Source: Alphaproteobacteria bacterium
Lineage (GTDB): Bacteria > Pseudomonadota > Alphaproteobacteria > RF32 > CAG-239
Direction: 5' to 3'
Assembly (NCBI GenBank): GCA_015062535.1
Contig: SUUK01000002.1
Coordinates: 31,946-95,945, forward strand
DNA length: 64,000 bases
A model generated the notes under the pieces. That model did no database searches and was not told the DNA's origin. It saw only the letters and a program-made list of their open reading frames with translations. Below are positions 8,125 to 18,019 of this stretch, one piece after another. A program made the translations under genes and the position numbers. Numbering within the stretch: the stretch's first letter is position 1; every line of letters begins with the position of its first letter.

Positions 8125-9183
8125 TTAAAATCCTAAATCATCAATAAAACTAAATTGGTTGTTTGTGTTTTTAAACTTGCTAATGCCAAGATATTTACAT
8201 CCTTGTTCTGATAAAACTCTTCCTCTTGGGGTTCTTTGTAAAAATCCTAGTTTTAACAAATATGGTTCTATTACTTCTTCTATTGTATCTCTTTCTTCGG
8301 AAAGGGCGGCTGCGAGTGTGTCTGCTCCAACAGGGCCTCCACCGTAGTTTTTGGCAATGCAATTTAAGTATCTGCGGTCAAACTCATCTAAACCATATGG
8401 GTCTACATCAAGTAAACCTAAAGCTTTATCTGCAATAGACGAATCTATTTCTACATTGCCGGCAACAGCGCCAAAATCTCGTACTCTTTTTAGTAATCTG
8501 CCTGCTATACGAGGAGTTCCACGTGAACGTTTGGCTATTTCCATTGCACCATCTTTTGAGATTGGCATATTTAGGATATTTGCACCACGTAAAACGATTT
8601 TTTGTAAATCGTCATGATTGTAAAAGTCCATTCTTAAAGGAATACCAAAACGTTCTCTTAGTGGAGTTGAAACAAGACCAGAACGAGTGGTTGCGCCAAC
8701 CAAAGTAAATGGTTGTAAATCTATTTTTACTGAACGAGCAGAAGGTCCTTCGCCGATGATTATATCTAGTTGAAAATCTTCCATTGCAGAATATAAAACT
8801 TCTTCTATTGCGGGGTTTAGGCGGTGGATTTCATCTATAAATAAGACATCTCTTGCTTCTAGGTTGGTTAGGATTGCGGCAAGGTCCCCTGATTTGGTAA
8901 TCATTGGGGCAGAGGTTGCCTTAAAACCAACACCTAATTCTTTGGAGATAATGTTTGATAAAGTTGTCTTTCCTAGCCCTGGAGGTCCATATAATAGAAC
9001 ATGGTCTAAAACCTCGCCTCGTTGTTTGGCTGACTGAATGAACACTTTTAAGTTTTGGCAGACTTTATCTTGCCCAACAAATTCATCTAAAGTTGATGGA
9101 CGTAGGTTTATTGCAACAGGAGAATTTTGCTCGTCTGTTGAAATTTTATCTGCACTTAAAATTCTTTCTTTTTCTTCAAGCAT
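8125..9183 (-). CDS. ruvB: Holliday junction branch-migration helicase RuvB
   Basis: Walker [10 protein letters not shown], Walker [16 protein letters not shown] sensor, C-terminal winged helix. 352 aa. Confidence 0.97.
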
Positions 9184-9191
9184 ATGGTCTC

Positions 9192-9860
9192 CTATTGATT
9201 AAATTCTTTTAATGCTAATCTGATTAATGTTGCTAAATCTTTATCAGGATTTTTTAAGCAAATTTCTGATGCTACTCTATACGCATCTATTTTTTGGTAG
9301 CCAAGATTTGATAGAGCAGATGTAACATCTTCGGTTTTTTTGTAAGTTTCATCTGTTTCGTCTGGTGTTTCTTGTTTTTGGGAATATGTGGTTGGAGTTT
9401 GTTTTTGGTCTTCATTTATAACAGTGTTTAAATCTTTAGTAGCAAGATATTCTGTTGGAATTGTAACTATTTTATCTTTTAGTTCTGTGATTAATCGTGC
9501 GGCAAGTTTAGGTCCTACGCCGTTTGCTCTTAAGAAAAGAGTTTTATCTTGTGCAGATACGGCTTGTGATAATTCTGCTGGTGATAAAACAGATAAAATA
9601 CTTAAACAAACTTTTCCGCCGACACCTTGTATTTTGGTTAAAGTGTTAAACCATTCTTTTTCCCATGGGGATTGGAAGCCAAATAGAGTAATGCTATCTT
9701 CTTTGATAACAGTTTCTATAAGAAGTGAAGCATATTCTCCATGTTGTAGTTTTGATAAAGAGCGTGAAGACATATTTACTAAATAACCAACACCATTGAC
9801 ATCTATAATGCAACAGTCTTCACCAATATTTTCTATAATTCCTTTGAGTTTTGCTATCAT
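9192..9860 (-). CDS. ruvA: Holliday junction DNA-binding protein RuvA
   Basis: N-terminal OB (MIAKLKGII), two HhH motifs ([24 protein letters not shown]), C-terminal domain III. Directly upstream of ruvB. Confidence 0.93.
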
Positions 9861-9998
9861 ATGTTTCCCTTTTGTTTTTTTTGTATCTTAAAAGGTTTTA
9901 TGATTGGATTCAAGAGCTTTTTTTGTATACCCCCTTTTTTCGTGTTTTTTTAAGCATATATCAAAAAGGATGTTTAATTAACTTAAAGGATTAGTGAT

Positions 9999-11144
9999 AT
10001 GAAGTTTTATAATATTCTTTTGTTTGGACTAATTGGTGTTTTTGGGTGTGGTAGTGCAAATGCTAGTAGTATAGAAAGTGATTATCAAAACTTTAAAAAC
10101 ATGGTTAATAAAAAGTATGGGTTGGATTATAGTATTGATTTATCTATTTTAGAGCAAAGGACCAGTCCAAATGGAAAAAATAACGCTGTTCAAGGATATT
10201 TGTATCCTAGTTTTACATGGACCATGCCTAGCAATAAATATGGTACAGGTGAGCTTAATTTTGCATATACAGTGATTAGATATGGTAATCATAATGCGAG
10301 TGATTTAGCAAATAATTCTGGGTTTGTTACACCAATAAATGATTATGATGATAAAACAAATGAGTTTAATGAATTATATTATACTTTTCAATTTGGTGGA
10401 AAATGGAATTGGCTGACTGTTGGTGTTGGTCAGTTTCCAATATATAATTTTGACGGCACAGATTATGATGCTAATCAGCAAGTTAATTTTTTGAATGAAG
10501 CTTTGGCACAAAATGCATCTGCATCATATACGCAAGCGGGAATTGGTATGTATATGCAGTTTAATCCAAATGATGATTGGACACTTGCGTTTGGTGGGCA
10601 AGATGGAACAAATATTGATGCGCAAAGTGTGAGGTTTAATAATTTAGGAGAGGAACATTATACTACATTTGGATATGTGGGGTATACTCCTACAATTAAA
10701 GGTGTTGGTGATGCTGAAATATCTATTCTTGTGTATAATCAACCTTGGGTTAAAGAGCAGATGCAAACAACAAATGGTTGGTCTTTGAATTTATCGCAAG
10801 ATATTGGTGAAAAATTAAGCTTGTTTGCAAGAATTAATGAAACAAGTGGTGATATGGAAGAAATTCGTCAATCTTGGGTGTTTGGTGGAGTGTATAATAA
10901 TCCTTTTGGGCGTAATGAATTAGACCAGATTGGGCTTGCGTATGCATATAATAAACTAGATGAAAAAGCGGTTGGCGAAAAGCTTAATCATAAAGCTGAA
11001 CAAGTGGTAGAAGCTTATTGGTCTTTTGGGATTGGGGATATGTTAACGATAACTCCTGATGTGCAGTTATATATTAATCCAGCACTTAATCAAAAATCTG
11101 ATTATGGCTTTGCAACAAGCTTGAGGGCTACGGTGTTTTTTTAA
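9999..11144 (+). CDS. Outer-membrane porin, OprB-like (carbohydrate-porin family, tentative)
   Basis: Signal peptide (...GCGSANA/SS). 381 aa. Alternating strand pattern and terminal Phe (RATVFF). Segments NGWSLNLSQD..LSLFARI..DQIGLAYAY resemble OprB-type porins by eye. Confidence 0.6.
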   Translation: MKFYNILLFGLIGVFGCGSANASSIESDYQNFKNMVNKKYGLDYSIDLSILEQRTSPNGKNNAVQGYLYPSFTWTMPSNKYGTGELNFAYTVIRYGNHNASDLANNSGFVTPINDYDDKTNEFNELYYTFQFGGKWNWLTVGVGQFPIYNFDGTDYDANQQVNFLNEALAQNASASYTQAGIGMYMQFNPNDDWTLAFGGQDGTNIDAQSVRFNNLGEEHYTTFGYVGYTPTIKGVGDAEISILVYNQPWVKEQMQTTNGWSLNLSQDIGEKLSLFARINETSGDMEEIRQSWVFGGVYNNPFGRNELDQIGLAYAYNKLDEKAVGEKLNHKAEQVVEAYWSFGIGDMLTITPDVQLYINPALNQKSDYGFATSLRATVFF

Positions 11145-11176
11145 ATACATTGTTTAAATACATAGTTTAAATACAG
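11138..11176 (+). repeat. 3 x 13-bp tandem repeat (TTTAAATACA core) just after the porin stop
   Basis: tttttaaatacat / tgtttaaatacat / agtttaaatacag, read directly. The first unit contains the porin TAA stop. Confidence 0.7.
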
Positions 11177-11306
11177 TGTATAAAAATAATCATTCAAAAA
11201 AAAGAAAAAACGTTGTGCATTAGTTTGATTTTATTGATGTTTGTTCTGTAAATAAAGATTATTGTTTAGAGAAATGTTAATATATCAAAAATGAAGGTTT
11301 TTAATA

Positions 11307-11840
11307 ATGCATAAGTTCTATCTAGTGTTGCTCGCATTGCTTGTTTCTGGATGCCAAGCAAAGCAAGTGATTGTTCCAGCTGTTGTTCATAACGTTAATA
11401 CAACAAAACAAGAAATTGTTGTTGAAAAGGCTCATTTGCCAATTATTGGTGAAGTTGAGCCTATTTATTTTTTACCAATGAAATCTCCTTTTTTAGCTAG
11501 AATTGATACTGGCGCTACAACATCTTCTTTGGATTGTAGAGATGTAGAGTATTTTGAACGAGATGGCGAAAGATGGGTTACTTTTAAGCTTAAAAATAGA
11601 AAAACTGGTGAAGAACATGTTTTTGAGAAAAAAGTAGAACGTTCTTTTAAGGTTAGAAGATCCGGAGAAGATGAACGTAGAAAAGCGGTGAAAATGGATG
11701 TGAAGATGGGAAAAGAAGTTTTTAGCGCTGTATTTTCTATTGCAGATAGAGAGCAATTTGACTATCAAGGTTTGATTGGTCGTAATATTTTAACTGGTAG
11801 ATATATTGTTGATACATCTACTTCTTATACTTTGAATTAA
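11307..11840 (+). CDS. RimK-associated retropepsin-like aspartic protease (family annotated 'ATP-dependent zinc protease', RimB-like), lipoprotein
   Basis: Lipobox LLVSGC. Motif ARIDTGATTSSL, ...FERDGERWVTF..., C-terminal LIGRNILTGRYIVD. 177 aa. Confidence 0.8.
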   Translation: MHKFYLVLLALLVSGCQAKQVIVPAVVHNVNTTKQEIVVEKAHLPIIGEVEPIYFLPMKSPFLARIDTGATTSSLDCRDVEYFERDGERWVTFKLKNRKTGEEHVFEKKVERSFKVRRSGEDERRKAVKMDVKMGKEVFSAVFSIADREQFDYQGLIGRNILTGRYIVDTSTSYTLN

Positions 11841-11856
11841 TTTTGGACATAAAATA

Positions 11857-13401
11857 ATGAGACTATTTTTTAAGAAATTTTTTAGCGTTAGATGTGTTTT
11901 GAGCTATTTGCTTGTTTTGTCTTTGTGGTATGCTGGGATGTGTTGTTATTACAAGATAAAATATTGGGGGTTTAGTTTATCACCTAAAGAAGTTACAGAT
12001 ATTTGGACTATTGATGCTAAAGTTTCTTTTAAGGCAATAGGTGGTGATGTTGAAGCAGTGCTTGGTATTCCAACAAACAATGATAGTTTTGAGATTTTAA
12101 GTGAAGAAATTGTTGCGAATGGTTATGAAATTAATCAAGATAAAGAGAATAATGTAATTGTTTTTAAAGGCGCAAATAAGAACGGAAAACAAAATCTTTA
12201 TTATCGTTTAAATATTTATGATGATTATAAAAAAGAAGCTAAAGGTGCATTAGCACCCAAGAAAGTAGCAAGACCAATATTGGATGATGAAGAAAAAATC
12301 CAAATGAAGAAAATTTGGGAGCTTACAGAATTACAAAAAGGTGATAGAGTTCAAAAAGTTATTAAAACTATAAATCAGGAAATGGCTAATCCCACTATGA
12401 GTTTGGTTTTGCCATTGAATTATACTCCTAAAGAATTTGCTGAAAAGATTGTTCATATATTGTCTTATAAGAGAATTCCTGCTCGTTTGGTTAGAGCTAT
12501 TAAGCTTGAAGAAGGTAAAAAAACGGATAAGCCAGATATTATGCTTGAGGCTTATTTTGATAATAAATGGACTTTGTATGATTTGAATACTGCAAGCGTA
12601 GGTTTGCCTGAAAATTGGGTCGTATTCCAACGTGGAGGGGTTGCTTTGCTTGATGTTCATGGTGGTGAAAATTCTAAAGTTATGTTTTCGGTGTTAAAAT
12701 CTGTTGCAACACCTTTGAAAATGGCTGAATTTAGAGCAAAAGATAGTGCTTTGCTTGTTCCTTATAAGTATAGTGTTTATAGTCTTCCTATTTTGGAACA
12801 AAATACATTAAAATGGTTGATGATATTCCCTCTTGCGATTTTGATGGTTGTAATTATGCGCAACGTGATTGGTGTTTCTACCATGGGAACATTTACACCA
12901 ATGCTTGTTGCTATGTCTTTGGTTAAGACTGGTTTTGTTCCTGGGCTTGTTTGCTTTTCTATAATGATATTTTTAGGCCTTTTAATGAGAACATTGGTTG
13001 CTAGACTTAATTTGTTGCTTGTTCCAAGAATTTCATTTGTGGTGATTTTTGTTATTATGCTGATACAAATATTAACAGTTATTGGTTATAGGTTAGATTA
13101 TGAAATTATTAGTTCTGCAATATTTTTCCCTATAATTATTACAGCATGGATTATTGAAAGAGCTTCTATTACATGGGAAGAAGAAGGGGCTAAAAATACC
13201 TTAAAAGAGATTTTTAACACAATGATTACAGCAATGATGACTTATGTTGTAATTAGTAGCGAATATGTTCGTCATGTGATGTTTGCTTTTAATGAGTTTA
13301 ACTTAGTTATCATGTTTATTGTGATGTTGCTTGGTACTTATACTGGTTATCGATTAACTGAGTTAATGCGTTTTGCACCACTTGTTAAAAATAAGGATTA
13401 A
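11857..13401 (+). CDS. Inactive-transglutaminase-like domain fused to a 7-TM module (UUP1-type membrane protein)
   Basis: N-terminal TM, ~300-aa soluble domain, then about 7 TM helices starting at LKWLMIFPLAILMVVIMRNVIGVSTMGTFTPMLVAMSL. This is the architecture that typically accompanies RimK-like ligases. Confidence 0.7.
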   Translation: MRLFFKKFFSVRCVLSYLLVLSLWYAGMCCYYKIKYWGFSLSPKEVTDIWTIDAKVSFKAIGGDVEAVLGIPTNNDSFEILSEEIVANGYEINQDKENNVIVFKGANKNGKQNLYYRLNIYDDYKKEAKGALAPKKVARPILDDEEKIQMKKIWELTELQKGDRVQKVIKTINQEMANPTMSLVLPLNYTPKEFAEKIVHILSYKRIPARLVRAIKLEEGKKTDKPDIMLEAYFDNKWTLYDLNTASVGLPENWVVFQRGGVALLDVHGGENSKVMFSVLKSVATPLKMAEFRAKDSALLVPYKYSVYSLPILEQNTLKWLMIFPLAILMVVIMRNVIGVSTMGTFTPMLVAMSLVKTGFVPGLVCFSIMIFLGLLMRTLVARLNLLLVPRISFVVIFVIMLIQILTVIGYRLDYEIISSAIFFPIIITAWIIERASITWEEEGAKNTLKEIFNTMITAMMTYVVISSEYVRHVMFAFNEFNLVIMFIVMLLGTYTGYRLTELMRFAPLVKNKD

Positions 13402-13405
13402 TTTG

Positions 13406-14350
13406 ATGCTTAATTGGTTTAAAATTGCAAAAAAATTAAAAGCACAAGGTGTTTTGGGTATGAATGAAAGAAATTACAATGTGATTTCTAAGCAAAATAA
13501 ACGTTCATTATATACTCTGGTTGATGATAAAGTAAAAACCAAAAAGTTGGCTAATAGTATTAATATTAATACTCCTAAGATGATTGGTATTATTGAACAC
13601 CAGTATGAAGTAAAAAATCTTTTGGATATTGTTAAAGGGCATAAGACATTTGTGATTAAGCCGGCGCATGGTAGTGGTGGTAAAGGTGTTTTGGTTATAA
13701 AAGAATATAATGAAAATGAATTTATCAATGCTTCGGGCGAAGTGCTTTCGTTTGATGATGTTTATCAGCATATTTCTAATACATTAAGCGGTCTTTTTAG
13801 TCTTGGTGGTAAATATGATGTAGCTTTGATTGAAGAAACTGTGAATTTTAGTAAGGTTTTTAAAGATTTTAGCTACCATGGTGTGCCAGATGTTAGGGTG
13901 ATTGTGTATAAAGGATACCCTGCTATGGTGATGATGAGATTAGCAACCAAAGAATCGGGTGGTAGAGCAAATCTACACCAAGGTGCTGTTGGTGTGGGGC
14001 TTGATGTAAAAACTGGTAAAACACTTAATGCTGTTATGCATAATAAGCAAGTAACTCATCATCCTGATACAGGGGCAAATCTTATGGATTTGAAAGTTCC
14101 TTTTTGGAGAGAGCATTTGCTTATTGGTGCTATGGCTTATGATATGACGGGGCTTGGTTATTTGGGAGCGGATATTGTGCTTGATAAGGAAAGAGGCCCT
14201 ATGATGCTTGAAGTTAATGCAAGACCTGGTCTTGCTATTCAGATAGCAAATGGAGTGGGTTTGAGAGATAGGTTGAAAGAAATTGATTCTTATCCTCAAA
14301 ACTTGAGTGCAGAACAACGTATTGATTGGGTATTGAATTATGAAAAATAA
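13406..14350 (+). CDS. Alpha-L-glutamate-ligase-related ATP-grasp protein (RimK-like)
   Basis: VLGMNERNYNVISKQNKRSLYTLVDDKVKTKKLA, FVIKPAHGSGGKGV, MLEVNARPG. Start moved from 13373 to ATG 13406 (MLNWFKIAKKLK). Confidence 0.8.
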   Translation: MLNWFKIAKKLKAQGVLGMNERNYNVISKQNKRSLYTLVDDKVKTKKLANSININTPKMIGIIEHQYEVKNLLDIVKGHKTFVIKPAHGSGGKGVLVIKEYNENEFINASGEVLSFDDVYQHISNTLSGLFSLGGKYDVALIEETVNFSKVFKDFSYHGVPDVRVIVYKGYPAMVMMRLATKESGGRANLHQGAVGVGLDVKTGKTLNAVMHNKQVTHHPDTGANLMDLKVPFWREHLLIGAMAYDMTGLGYLGADIVLDKERGPMMLEVNARPGLAIQIANGVGLRDRLKEIDSYPQNLSAEQRIDWVLNYEK

Positions 14351-15011
14351 ATTCCTAAATATAGTTTTAGTTTTAACTGTTATTTTAATTGTAAAGGGTT
14401 TTATGATGGGAAATGTGTTAGCTAAAAGTGATACAAAGATTTTGGATAAAAGCGATACAAAAAGTATTGGTGTTGAAGAAACAAAAAAACTTGAAGTGAG
14501 TGAAACGAGAGGTAAGAAAATGAAACATTCTTATAATGTAAAAGATCAAGAAAATGCATTGGTTTTGAAATTAAAAGATGGTGAAGTGGTGATTGAGATG
14601 TTTCCAGAGGAAGCTCCAAACCATGTTGCTAGAATTAAAGAACTAGTTAGAGAAGGTTTTTATAATGGTTTGAAATTCCATAGAGTTATTGATGGGTTTA
14701 TGGCGCAAACAGGTTGTCCTTTGGGTAATGGTACTGGTGGTAGCGGTAAGAAGCTAAAGGCTGAATTTAATAGAGTTCCTCATACACGTGGTACGGTTTC
14801 TATGGCCAGAGCAATGGACCCTAACTCTGCAGATAGTCAATTCTTTATTTGTTTTGATGATGCTCCACACCTAGATGGTCAATATACTGTTTGGGGTAAA
14901 GTTGTTAGCGGTATGGAATATGTTGACAATATCAAAAAAGGCGGTGGTTATAATGGTATGGTTTATGACCCAGATGTGATTGTTAGCATGGAAGTTATTG
15001 CCGATATGTAA
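14340..15011 (+). CDS. Cyclophilin-type peptidyl-prolyl cis-trans isomerase with N-terminal signal/anchor extension
   Basis: FHRVIDGFMAQTG, GTVSMAR, SQFFICF motifs. The first 60 aa are a hydrophobic signal (MKNKFLNIVLVLTVILIVKGFMMGNVLA) plus a KSDTK repeat. An alternative start at ATG 14520 (GAGG RBS) would give a 164-aa cytoplasmic form. ATG 14340 overlaps the ligase stop by 11 nt. Confidence 0.9.
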   Translation: MKNKFLNIVLVLTVILIVKGFMMGNVLAKSDTKILDKSDTKSIGVEETKKLEVSETRGKKMKHSYNVKDQENALVLKLKDGEVVIEMFPEEAPNHVARIKELVREGFYNGLKFHRVIDGFMAQTGCPLGNGTGGSGKKLKAEFNRVPHTRGTVSMARAMDPNSADSQFFICFDDAPHLDGQYTVWGKVVSGMEYVDNIKKGGGYNGMVYDPDVIVSMEVIADM

Positions 15012-15032
15012 TAGGGATTTGATTTAAGAAGA

Positions 15033-15058
15033 AAGAGGGGGCGAGAAGCCTCCTTTTT
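15033..15058. terminator. Probable intrinsic terminator between the PPIase and the convergent XRE gene
   Basis: AAGAGGGGGC-GAGAA-GCCTCCTTT hairpin (with G-U pairs) followed by a T-run. Overlaps the XRE stop codon. Confidence 0.5.
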
Positions 15059-15275
15059 ATGATTGGTTTGTATTAAAAAAATCTTTTATATCAATGTGCA
15101 GAGCATCTGCAATTGCATATAATATATTTACAGAGATATTTGCTTTGCCGTTTTCTATCTCTGATAAATATGCTCTATCTATTCCAACCTCAACAGCAAG
15201 CTCTATTTGTGTTAAATTTTGTTTTTTGCGTTGGTTTTGAATATTTTTGCCTATGGTTAAGAGTCTGTTTTGCAA
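15057..15275 (-). CDS. XRE/Cro-C1 family helix-turn-helix transcriptional regulator
   Basis: 72 aa. HTH_3 pattern QRKKQNLTQIELAVEVGIDRAYLSEIENGK. Confidence 0.85.
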   Translation of the reverse strand: MQNRLLTIGKNIQNQRKKQNLTQIELAVEVGIDRAYLSEIENGKANISVNILYAIADALHIDIKDFFNTNQS

Positions 15276-15331
15276 TATATACCCTTATTAAAATTTGTTT
15301 GAGGGTATTATAATTTATTTATGAAAATATG

Positions 15332-15349
15332 TGTTGACTATAGTCAACA
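15332..15349. promoter_or_regulatory. Perfect 18-bp palindrome (candidate XRE operator) overlapping the -35 of the divergent promoter
   Basis: TGTTGACTA|TAGTCAACA is a perfect inverted repeat. It contains TTGACT (15334-15339). 17 nt later comes TATTGT (15357-15362), about 34 nt before ATG 15396. Confidence 0.6.
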
Positions 15350-15395
15350 TTTATAGTATTGTAGTAATATAGTTTTATTTTATGGGAGATGAGAG

Positions 15396-16412
15396 ATGAG
15401 CGCTTTTGATGATTTGATTGCTAAATTGACAGAGAAAAATTTAAGCACGGATAAAGTTGATGCAATACTTGAAGCTGGTGAAAATTTAGCTAATGCATTA
15501 GGTGGTGGTGCTGAGATTATGGAACAGTTAAATGCATTAAGAACTGCGGGAATTCAAAAAAAAGGTAATAAAGATATAAAAGATATTGATAATCCAAAAG
15601 ATTTAAATGCTATGTTTGATGACTATATAGCTAAAGTAAAAAAAGACGCTAGCGTTGTTAATCACTCAAGAGAAGCTGAAATGGCATATAAAATGTATTC
15701 GTTAGTATCAACCGGTAAAATGAGTAAAGAACAAGCGTTAGAATTTTCCGAAAAGCTAAAAGAAACAGATTGCATGAAATACGGAAGTTTAAGTGACAAA
15801 AGTTTGTTTAGAGATTCTGTTGTTGCTACATATGAATATTGTGGGTACAAATCGGAACAACAGAAAAAAATGGATGAATATACTAAGAAAATGGACGCTG
15901 AACTTCAAGGTAAGGAATATGTTCCTGAAAAAGAAAAAGATTTATATGAACGCAAAACAAATAGTAATGATTATGCTGATATGTTTAAAAAAGATAGTAA
16001 AAGTTATGAAGCTGGGAGAGGTGTTTTTGATAGATATAAAGAAGTATTCAGGAATGTTTGGAATTCTCCAGAAGTAAGAAAAAATAGAAAAGAGTTAAAA
16101 GATAGTTTTAATAGTCTTGGTGTTTTGGATGCTTTAAAAAATGGTGTTTCTAAAAATCCTAAACTTACTATGGCTGCTGGAGCTTTATCTGTTTTTGCAG
16201 GAATTGGAACTGCTAATCCTGCATTGGCAGCGGCAGGGGCTTCGATATTAACAGTTGCAGCTGTAAAATTATATAATGAAAAAATAAAGGGTAAAGTAAG
16301 TAGAAAAATAGAAGGAAAAGATACAAAAGAAACTAAAAAAATGTTAAGCGGTAAAGCTGGCACTAAAGGTGTTGTGATGATTAACTCTATTTCAGGAGGA
16401 AGAAATGGGTAA
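15396..16412 (+). CDS. Hypothetical protein with C-terminal Gly/Ala-rich double hydrophobic hairpin
   Basis: 338 aa. GGAG RBS. Lys/Glu-rich helical N-region. C-terminal LTMAAGALSVFAGIGTANPALAAAGASILTVAAV followed by a basic tail. No family recognised. Confidence 0.6.
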   Translation: MSAFDDLIAKLTEKNLSTDKVDAILEAGENLANALGGGAEIMEQLNALRTAGIQKKGNKDIKDIDNPKDLNAMFDDYIAKVKKDASVVNHSREAEMAYKMYSLVSTGKMSKEQALEFSEKLKETDCMKYGSLSDKSLFRDSVVATYEYCGYKSEQQKKMDEYTKKMDAELQGKEYVPEKEKDLYERKTNSNDYADMFKKDSKSYEAGRGVFDRYKEVFRNVWNSPEVRKNRKELKDSFNSLGVLDALKNGVSKNPKLTMAAGALSVFAGIGTANPALAAAGASILTVAAVKLYNEKIKGKVSRKIEGKDTKETKKMLSGKAGTKGVVMINSISGGRNG

Positions 16413-16758
16413 TATAGATAAAGGTGTGTTTTTTGTAAAAAACGATAAAGTTGCTTTAGAATTATATGATTTAAATAAGAAATTTGTTAAATTTATATAT
16501 GATGGTAAAAATACAGCTATATTAACTGATGAAAATAATGAAGAATATATTTTAGAGAATATTGTATTTGAAATTAGGTCTTTACTTAAAAATGGCGAAG
16601 ATTTGATGATGCTGAAAAATGAAAACAATGTGGTTGAAGAAATATATTTTTTAAAAGTTAAAATAGATGATACATTGGCTTATGAAGATGATTTTAATGA
16701 AAAGAGCGTAAAACTCTTTGATGAGATAAAAGATTTTGTTGATAAGAGTGCTGTGTAA
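16405..16758 (+). CDS. Small acidic hypothetical protein, translationally coupled to ORF 15396-16412
   Basis: 117 aa. No TM or signal peptide. The ATG overlaps the upstream ORF by 8 nt. No family recognised. Confidence 0.55.
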   Translation: MGNIDKGVFFVKNDKVALELYDLNKKFVKFIYDGKNTAILTDENNEEYILENIVFEIRSLLKNGEDLMMLKNENNVVEEIYFLKVKIDDTLAYEDDFNEKSVKLFDEIKDFVDKSAV

Positions 16759-16774
16759 GTAATCAAAGGCTATT

Positions 16775-17263
16775 TTATGCAATTTTAGAATTAAAAGAGT
16801 TTCTTAAGTTTGCGTGGGTGATGGCGATTGCAAGCGCATCGGATGAGTCGTTATTTTTTGGTTTGCACCCAGGGAGAAGGATTTTTACCATTGTTTCTAC
16901 TTGGGTTTTGTCTGCACGTCCCACCCCTGTTAGAGCCTTTTTTACCTTATTTGGTTCGTATTCATAAAGTGGGATGTTGTATAATGATGGCATTAAAAAA
17001 ACTACACCTCTTGCCATGCTTAGTTTTAATGAGGTTTCAGGGTTGGAGTTTAAGAAAGTTATTTCTATTGATGCTTCATCAGGTTTATATTGTTCAATAA
17101 TTTTTTGTAGTTCATTATGGATAATGTGTAGGCGCTCTGATAGAGGTAGTTTGTTAGAGGTAGGAATAAAGCCGTCTGCCTTATAAGACAAACGGCTCCC
17201 TTCAACATCTATTATGCCCCAACCTGTTGATGATATACTTGGGTCTAGGCCTAATATTCGCAT
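16775..17263 (-). CDS. ruvC: Crossover junction endodeoxyribonuclease RuvC
   Basis: MRILGLDPS (catalytic Asp), EASIE, SSDALAIAITHA. 162 aa. Confidence 0.95.
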   Translation of the reverse strand: MRILGLDPSISSTGWGIIDVEGSRLSYKADGFIPTSNKLPLSERLHIIHNELQKIIEQYKPDEASIEITFLNSNPETSLKLSMARGVVFLMPSLYNIPLYEYEPNKVKKALTGVGRADKTQVETMVKILLPGCKPKNNDSSDALAIAITHANLRNSFNSKIA

Positions 17264-18019
17264 TTATTCTGCCTCTAGTTCTGCCATTACAGAATCTGAA
17301 ATTTCTGCATTGTGATATACATGTTGTACATCTTCATCTTCTTCAAGAGCATCAATGAACTCTAAGAATTTTTTAGCAGTTTCAATGTCTGTTATTTCTG
17401 ATTTAACAGTTGGTTTCCAATCAAGACGAGAAGCTGATGGTGTACCAAATTTTTGTTCTAAAGCTTCTGTTACAGAAGATAGGTCATCAGGAAGAGTTTC
17501 GATTGTATGAATTTCATCTTCGGTGATAACTTCGTTTGCACCTGCATTTAATGCTTCTTCAAACATTGTATCTCCATCTGCAACAGATAGTGGATACTCA
17601 ATGTAGCCAATGCGCTCAAAGTTGAATGTTACAGAACCTGTTTCACCCATTGCACCACCACGTTTACCAAAAATTGAGCGAACGTTACTTGCTGTACGAT
17701 TTTTATTATCTGTTAGGGCTTCTACAATAACAGCTACTTTGCTTGATGAAAAACCTTCATAACGCATAGTTGTGAAGTCTGCACCGCCGGCTGTTTGAGT
17801 TGCTTTGGCAATTGCACGTTCTATGTTGTCTTTTGGCATGCTTTCTGCACGAGCTGCTTGGATTGCAAGTCTTAAACGAGGGTTTTTATCTGGCTCAGGT
17901 AGACCTGATTTTGCAGCAACAGTAATTTCACGAGCTAGTTTTGCAAAAACTCTAGCTTTTTTTGCATCTTGTGCACCTTTGCGGTACATAATGTTTTTAA
18001 ATTGGGAGTGTCCAGCCAT
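17264..18019 (-). CDS. yebC: YebC/PmpR family DNA-binding transcriptional regulator
   Basis: Hallmark N-terminus MAGHSQFKNIMYRKGAQDAKKA. 251 aa. Its stop abuts the ruvC start (conserved yebC-ruvC pair). Confidence 0.95.
   Translation of the reverse strand: MAGHSQFKNIMYRKGAQDAKKARVFAKLAREITVAAKSGLPEPDKNPRLRLAIQAARAESMPKDNIERAIAKATQTAGGADFTTMRYEGFSSSKVAVIVEALTDNKNRTASNVRSIFGKRGGAMGETGSVTFNFERIGYIEYPLSVADGDTMFEEALNAGANEVITEDEIHTIETLPDDLSSVTEALEQKFGTPSASRLDWKPTVKSEITDIETAKKFLEFIDALEEDEDVQHVYHNAEISDSVMAELEAE

Follow-up and report, generated by a model that had tools for sequence, protein, structure and literature searches.

A probable four-gene, single-protease form of the rloABC operon in a family of gut Alphaproteobacteria

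The closest described relatives of the locus reported here are the rloABC operon, defined in Pseudomonas aeruginosa PA14 (PA14_41690, PA14_41710 and PA14_41730; Lormand et al., mBio 2025, PMC12239564), and the RimK/RimB pair of the RimABK system, which serves the polyglutamylation of ribosomal protein S6. The RloA protein of P. aeruginosa, a secreted protease of the retropepsin-like type whose crystal structures are solved, cleaves polyglutamate (polyE) of at least 8 Glu, and mutation of its R114 and R137 abolishes activity and complementation (PMC12239564). Cells from which all three RloA paralogs are missing do not survive in low-salt medium and show biofilm, beta-lactam and cell-shape defects, for which the authors raise peptidoglycan homeostasis; deletion of rloB or rloC rescues this triple protease mutant (PMC12239564). 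The operon was reported to be mainly gammaproteobacterial, with most carriers also having RimB-RimK (PMC12239564). In Shewanella, a transposon screen tied an RloB-type protein to membrane-vesicle production. Here we describe a locus in a 64,000-nucleotide (nt) stretch of alphaproteobacterial DNA (the window; assembly GCA_015062535.1, contig SUUK01000002.1, positions 31,946 to 95,945). We conclude with good confidence that it is an rloABC ortholog which, in the gut alphaproteobacterial family of its host, has grown to four genes, rloA-rloB-rloC-ppi, the last encoding a cyclophilin-type peptidyl-prolyl isomerase (PPIase), and that it probably works by the mechanism outlined below.

The four genes lie tightly packed on one strand (Table 1). 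An earlier sequence-only reading of the window had described three closely spaced genes, the last overlapped by a cyclophilin open reading frame (ORF), and its coordinates hold: the gaps are 16 nt between rloA and rloB and 4 nt between rloB and rloC (from ATG 13406), and the overlap of rloC by ppi is exactly 11 nt (14340-14350). Hidden Markov model searches with Pfam and NCBIfam placed every protein in the family that this reading had predicted. Synteny was counted over 80 species-level related loci, 76 of them with room downstream, and over a comparison set of 29 rlo loci of other families. The order rloA-rloB-rloC on one strand recurs in all 80 family loci and in the 29 loci from elsewhere (~30 families), with rloA undetected beside rloB in 3 of these 29. 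Such neighbourhoods can no longer be called described mainly by comparative genomics, as the same reading had put it: for rloABC, crystal structures, assays of polyglutamate cleavage and epistasis data are by now available (PMC12239564).

Table 1. Features of the rlo locus and its upstream neighbour (window positions; aa, amino acids; TM, transmembrane; 7TM, seven-transmembrane; SD, Shine-Dalgarno; TRF, Tandem Repeats Finder).
Feature	Position	Strand	Details
rloA: retropepsin-like aspartic peptidase, predicted lipoprotein	11307..11840	+	177 aa; PF05618
rloB: N-terminal TM helix, periplasmic inactive transglutaminase-like domain, 7TM domain	11857..13401	+	514 aa; PF14400 + PF14402
rloC: cytoplasmic ATP-grasp ligase, alpha-L-glutamate-ligase-like	13406..14350	+	314 aa; TIGR02291, PF14397
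ppi: Rlo-linked cyclophilin-type PPIase	14340..15011	+	223 aa; PF00160
Former rloC-ppi spacer	14351..14402	+	anti-SD-like ATTCCTAAATA 14351-14361; SD-like AAGGG 14394-14398; ATG 14403
OprB/AaxA-family outer-membrane porin, upstream neighbour	9999..11144	+	PF04966
13-bp direct repeat TTTAAATACA-N3, 3.5 copies, upstream of rloA	11140..11184	+	TRF score 69

RloA carries the marks of an exported polyglutamate protease. It matches PF05618 (2e-29), and its best NCBIfam model is RloA3 (3.4e-30; 105 bits against a cutoff of 210, below equivalog level), followed by RloA2, RloA and RimB. The N-terminus runs from MHK and FYLVLLALLV into the lipobox MHKFYLVLLALLVSG directly ahead of C16 (VSG-C16), a predicted export signal that bears out the lipobox proposed earlier, and the lipobox cysteine is present in every RloA of the family that we inspected. 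RloA aligns to two solved structures of the Rlo/RimB type, PDB entries 9g59 and 9g58, with D67-T-G-A in register with their DTGA. Across 40 sequences from ~30 families, D67, G69, R125 and R148 are invariant, and R65, R125 and R148 are the alignment counterparts of the polyglutamate-coordinating K46, R114 and R137 of P. aeruginosa.

RloB combines PF14400 (5.7e-26) with PF14402 (1.5e-75), and the NCBIfam RloB model matches it end to end at 277 bits against a Pseudomonas-tuned cutoff of 900. An AlphaFold2 model (mean predicted local distance difference test score, pLDDT, 72) folds into an N-terminal helix, a beta-rich domain and then a helical bundle. A Foldseek search of this model against the PDB matched the periplasmic half to 3ISR, a transglutaminase-like protein (E=6e-9), and returned nothing for the 7TM half. 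Conservation over 44 sequences falls almost wholly in the 7TM half, where R335, R378, R391, E434, R435, E442, E502 and R505 are invariant alongside several Gly and Pro residues; the transglutaminase-like half holds no conserved Cys, His or Asp in the same set. We infer that this domain, on the periplasmic side of the membrane, lacks catalytic activity.

RloC passes the cutoff of TIGR02291 (426 bits against 314.2) and matches PF14397 at 1.9e-88, and on the RimK-family model TIGR00768 it stays below the cutoff (40.9 bits against 143.4). In its alignment over 43 sequences, 69 columns reach a conservation of 93% or more. An open frame runs from TTG 13373 (325 aa), but ATG 13406 is likely the start, because the first ATG of relatives sits 0-4 nt past the rloB stop; this choice gives 314 aa in place of the 315 aa assigned earlier. 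The Klebsiella CfmP ATP-grasp was set aside as a comparison, being a TupA-like enzyme.

The locus belongs to a lineage of small genomes. The window's genome measures 1.73 Mb at 100% completeness, which agrees with the streamlined genome that the sequence had suggested, and the loci related to it belong to uncultured Alphaproteobacteria of gut and rumen, including 'Acetobacter sp. CAG:977' and 'Ca. Scatocola'. The RloB domain PF14402 is present in 149/149 genomes of the window's own family (19 genera, 1.3-2.0 Mb), in 14/401 Alphaproteobacteria and in 53/401 Pseudomonadota. rloA is the sole PF05618 gene in the window's genome, which contains neither a second PF05618 match nor a separate RimK match. 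Exactly one PF05618 match was found in 39 of 41 sampled family genomes, including all 36 high-quality ones; the sampled genomes with this single copy hence have no RimB.

Set against rloABC of PA14, the locus shares the three families, their gene order and their strand: a secreted DTG protease with polyE-binding arginines, an RloB with an inactive transglutaminase and 7TM domain, and a TIGR02291-type RloC. It departs from PA14 in its alphaproteobacterial host, in a single protease, predicted to be a lipoprotein, where PA14 has three redundant paralogs, and in a fourth gene, a tailed cyclophilin apparently coupled to rloC. Unlike in most rlo carriers, RimB is missing from the sampled family genomes, and a separate RimK match is missing from the window's genome. 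With RimK/RimB, the locus has in common an ATP-grasp ligase paired with a polyglutamate-trimming retropepsin-like protease, whereas RimB is cytoplasmic and works with no membrane component, and in the window the protease bears a lipoprotein signal and a gene for a 7TM protein stands between its gene and that of the ligase. RimK/RimB is likely the evolutionary source of the rlo operon. The analogy with RimK and the idea of membrane-associated poly-amino-acid chemistry, both raised by the sequence-only reading, appear sound after family placement and conservation analysis. An already known system is thereby placed in a new lineage, in a four-gene, single-protease form that is well conserved within that lineage; the alphaproteobacterial host family, the single protease copy, the rloC-linked cyclophilin and a conserved 13-bp repeat before rloA are new here.

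The product of ppi is a cyclophilin of unusual layout. It matches PF00160 (1.6e-44; 152 bits against a cutoff of 21.7), and its active-site motif FHRVIDGFMAQTG aligns to solved cyclophilins. A hydrophobic extension (residues 1-21) is followed by a charged tail with repeats (30-57) and the catalytic domain (76-219). The tail, ~45 residues rich in Lys, Ser, Thr and Glu, holds four [STE][ED]T[KR] repeats at a spacing of 8 residues, and most orthologs are alike in this. PpiA and PpiB share the cyclophilin fold and the active-site motif FHRV..GF..Q.G; unlike them, the linked cyclophilin scores 84 bits, short of both equivalog cutoffs of ~300, has the 45-residue SETK-repeat tail, mostly lacks a signal peptide and neighbours an ATP-grasp ligase gene.

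The hydrophobic extension is confined to part of the family. Most family ppi genes start at the equivalent of Met22/23 (14403), omitting the hydrophobic segment, and in most species this start lies 40-57 nt past rloC with a strong SD sequence ahead of it. In the window and 7 near relatives only, an ATG inside the 3' end of rloC opens a frame through the spacer and adds 21 codons. The signal or anchor extension that had been proposed for the cyclophilin is therefore real in these eight and missing from most of the family. Throughout the subclade no indel interrupts the stretch, substitutions in it are synonymous or conservative and codon position 2 retains T; the extension is thus probably translated as a signal or anchor.

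ppi and rloC are joined at two levels, gene order and a putative translational link. An ortholog of ppi occurs in 148/149 family genomes, usually ~1 kb past rloB; it directly follows rloC in ~71 of the 76 related species with room, and in 75 of them it is no more than 3 kb away. The outer flanks (ruvA on one side, ruvC-yebC on the other) are kept only in the nearer half of the 80 loci and are lost in the more distant half. At the junction of relatives, the rloC stop is immediately followed by a conserved pyrimidine tract (ACTTCCT and variants) that pairs with the SD sequence of ppi. In an alignment-free comparison with shuffled sequences, this anti-SD/SD duplex is stronger at p<=0.05 for 19 of 43 distinct junctions, against ~2 expected by chance, and its arms co-vary (CTTCC/GGAAG, CTCC/GGAG, CCCT/AGGG). 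Translation of ppi thus appears to be coupled to that of rloC, by an SD-sequestering hairpin or, in the window's subclade, by the overlap.

A few species carry other genes between rloC and ppi. An HD-domain protein and a Nudix hydrolase are found there in L067 (8505-9565), the same HD-type protein in L062 (8511-9137), and in L039 (8640-11128) a 547-aa ORF that looks phage tail-fibre-like by eye.

Several observations weigh against a four-gene system. The related genomes are kin, so the synteny counts overstate independence. No cyclophilin lies within ~7 kb of rlo at any of the 29 loci from other families (0/29), so the four-gene operon that had been proposed from sequence holds, by co-conservation and signs of coupling, for this lineage and does not extend beyond it. 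ppi is the sole cyclophilin of the window's genome, and a housekeeping enzyme is therefore possible. The duplex at the window's own junction is marginal (p=0.08), and RNAalifold found no consensus hairpin across 26 rloC-ppi junctions aligned with MAFFT, as the arms had slipped out of register in that alignment; the alignment-free duplex test was used instead. Consensus promoter and terminator scans of 9700-15500 did no better than shuffles. Finally, at 25-50% identity to the PA14 proteins and with RloA and RloB under the Pseudomonas-tuned NCBIfam cutoffs, membership in rloABC is established at the level of family and architecture, not at equivalog level.

The kinship of the genomes, the 0/29 count and the lack of another cyclophilin in the window's genome all favour a rival explanation, in which the protein is the cell's general PPIase, settled beside rloC since the ancestor of the family and kept there as inherited gene order with no role in Rlo. 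So do the inserted HD, Nudix and phage-like genes, which separate rloC from ppi in a few species while neither is lost, and the relative L032, which has no ppi within 5 kb. Yet adjacency of rloC and ppi outlives the shuffling of both outer flanks, and the junction holds a co-varying, putatively SD-sequestering hairpin or a coding overlap. The comparison with ordinary cyclophilins points the same way. Proteins of 178-182 aa with a classical signal peptide and no tail occur at L160 6810-7358 (-) (G845) and L159 6955-7491 (+) (G773); such tailless forms stand beside purC in the sister family and, as a second copy, beside mutS in some genera. The conserved 45-residue tail of the linked copy is missing from all of these, and genera with a second cyclophilin still keep the rloC-linked one, the window's genome being without an ordinary copy. 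We therefore hold a general PPIase to be a serious though doubtful alternative.

Two further ideas about the history of the junction did not stand. An apparent co-loss in G229, where rloB has a stop and no ppi is seen, was discarded, as the contig ends ~660 nt after rloC. Insertion of rloABC into a pre-existing porin-cyclophilin pair found no backing in one sister-family genome, in which the cyclophilin is tailless and lies by purC and no porin was found; a single genome, 79% complete, is weak evidence against it.

The reading we prefer is that the cyclophilin, translated in step with RloC, is likely an accessory factor of the Rlo system. A bolder version makes it a fourth Rlo subunit whose SETK tail docks to RloC or RloB, or accepts a modification made by RloC, while proline isomerisation gates the hand-over of the product to RloB; this we put forward as speculation, and improbable as it stands.

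A working scheme for the whole system can be drawn from the P. aeruginosa data and from conservation. What the window and its relatives show directly is who the proteins are, how far they are conserved and the signals of coupling; the chemistry is carried over from P. aeruginosa and RimK. RloC, as a cytoplasmic ATP-grasp amidoligase, would build a Glu-rich peptide or tag. RloB would hold or pass this product at the inner membrane by means of the charged Arg and Glu residues of its 7TM domain, and RloA, a predicted periplasmic lipoprotein with intact polyglutamate-binding arginines, would trim or remove it. If RloA were missing, the RloB/RloC product would presumably be harmful. The SETK-tailed cyclophilin would be made in step with RloC, the ribosome terminating on rloC opening the SD-sequestering hairpin, and in the window's subclade the 11-nt overlap would replace the hairpin as the link between the two genes. 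A hairpin opened by a terminating ribosome is a classic coupling arrangement.

The chemistry of RloC is the part of this scheme with a rival of its own: the enzyme might ligate another amino acid onto an envelope glycan or a peptidoglycan-related precursor, with RloA processing a protein substrate. Its best Pfam model is named 'sugar-transfer associated ATP-grasp', its similarity to RimK structures is weak (E ~1e-3), and the other genomic copy of the repeat found upstream of rloA adjoins mltA and putative envelope genes. The cell-shape and beta-lactam phenotypes of P. aeruginosa, with the peptidoglycan homeostasis raised by the authors, fit it as well (PMC12239564). Against it, TIGR02291 is classed as alpha-L-glutamate-ligase-like, and the polyE-coordinating arginines of RloA are invariant in ~30 families and indispensable in P. 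aeruginosa, where their mutation abolishes function (PMC12239564). We consider this rival unlikely and keep polyglutamate as the probable product.

Upstream of rloA lies a porin, found on the same strand in 67 of the 80 related loci. It matches PF04966 (1.3e-14; 54.8 against a cutoff of 22.9) and reaches 277 bits on the NCBIfam AaxA model, below its cutoff of 600; the ORFs of the window include no aaxB/aaxC-type decarboxylase or antiporter near it. Compared with AaxA of the arginine/agmatine system of Chlamydia, which it matches neither in equivalog score nor in partners, the window's porin is a member of the OprB family only. Since many relatives have an intrinsic terminator hairpin that closes the porin gene ahead of the repeat, and ~20 species have opposite-strand orphan genes of 1-2.4 kb between porin and rloA, the porin is on present sequence evidence a conserved neighbour and a separate transcription unit. 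That it is instead a fifth component, an outer-membrane conduit co-transcribed with rlo, we judge very unlikely: its same-strand position, its persistence in some distant species without the ruvC flank and the lack of a terminator hairpin after it in the window speak for this, and are outweighed by those terminators and intervening orphans, by its absence from at least 7 loci with enough upstream sequence and by the lack of an AaxA-like porin within ~7 kb at all 29 rlo loci of other families (0/29).

The opposite-strand orphans come singly or in pairs and measure 323-509 aa, as at L029 4301-5275 (-), L043 3049-5268 (-), L053 3824-5353 (-) and L054 4318-5289 (-), and no Pfam family was found for them. 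NYCVAGAM and SGEHCVTC, motifs present in those of L029 and L043, could mark a Cys/His hydrolase. The window's genome has a second AaxA/OprB-like porin, 33% identical, outside the window (G000:C10:169212-170270, -).

Between porin and rloA, the 13-bp repeat is the conserved element; the sequence-only reading had linked neither it nor the porin to the cluster. Relatives L001-L028 hold 2-4 copies of TTTAAATACA-N3 upstream of rloA, past the porin terminator, while the remaining spacer diverges. Within the whole 1.73-Mb genome the repeat dimer TTTAAATACATTGTTTAAATACA is limited to two loci, with 0 hits for the reversed control. The second site (G000:C10:28614-28636; L162 3115-3137) lies 3.3 kb before the window start, just after mltA-smr and ~220 nt upstream of three tandem orphans with signal peptides (229, 273 and 226 aa), for which no Pfam match was found. 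These three may be co-regulated with rlo. The repeat is probably a binding site, at present a candidate, of the operon's regulator, and its presence on the mltA side suggests, from two sites, a regulator site common to rlo and envelope genes. In other bacteria, VxrB controls rlo orthologs in Vibrio, and rloA2 is linked to creBC (PMC12239564).

Downstream, a variable island (15057-16758) separates ppi from ruvC in the window. It comprises an XRE-type helix-turn-helix gene and two orphan ORFs (338 and 117 aa) for which no Pfam or NCBIfam match was found. In most near relatives ruvC directly follows ppi, and only L001, L012 and L022 carry parts of the island. Together with the island, the + strand block porin-rloABC-ppi splits a - strand yebC-ruvC-ruvA-ruvB cluster (8125-9860 and 16775-18019); in several near relatives the porin-rloABC-ppi block sits exactly between ruvA and ruvC.

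Work published in 2025 connected Rlo of P. aeruginosa with osmotic tolerance, sensitivity to beta-lactams, the formation of biofilms and cell shape, and the family described here offers a non-redundant version of the system for heterologous study. The invariant charged residues of the RloB 7TM domain are obvious targets for mutagenesis, and the apparently coupled cyclophilin offers a testable lead to a partner protein, as the conserved repeat before rloA does to a regulator. Should the cyclophilin prove to be a subunit, this minimal, one-protease, Rim-less system would give a first handle on the physiological substrate of Rlo. That every sampled genome of the family, at 1.3-2.0 Mb, retains rlo with one protease and without a Rim system points to a core role in the envelope, not an accessory one.

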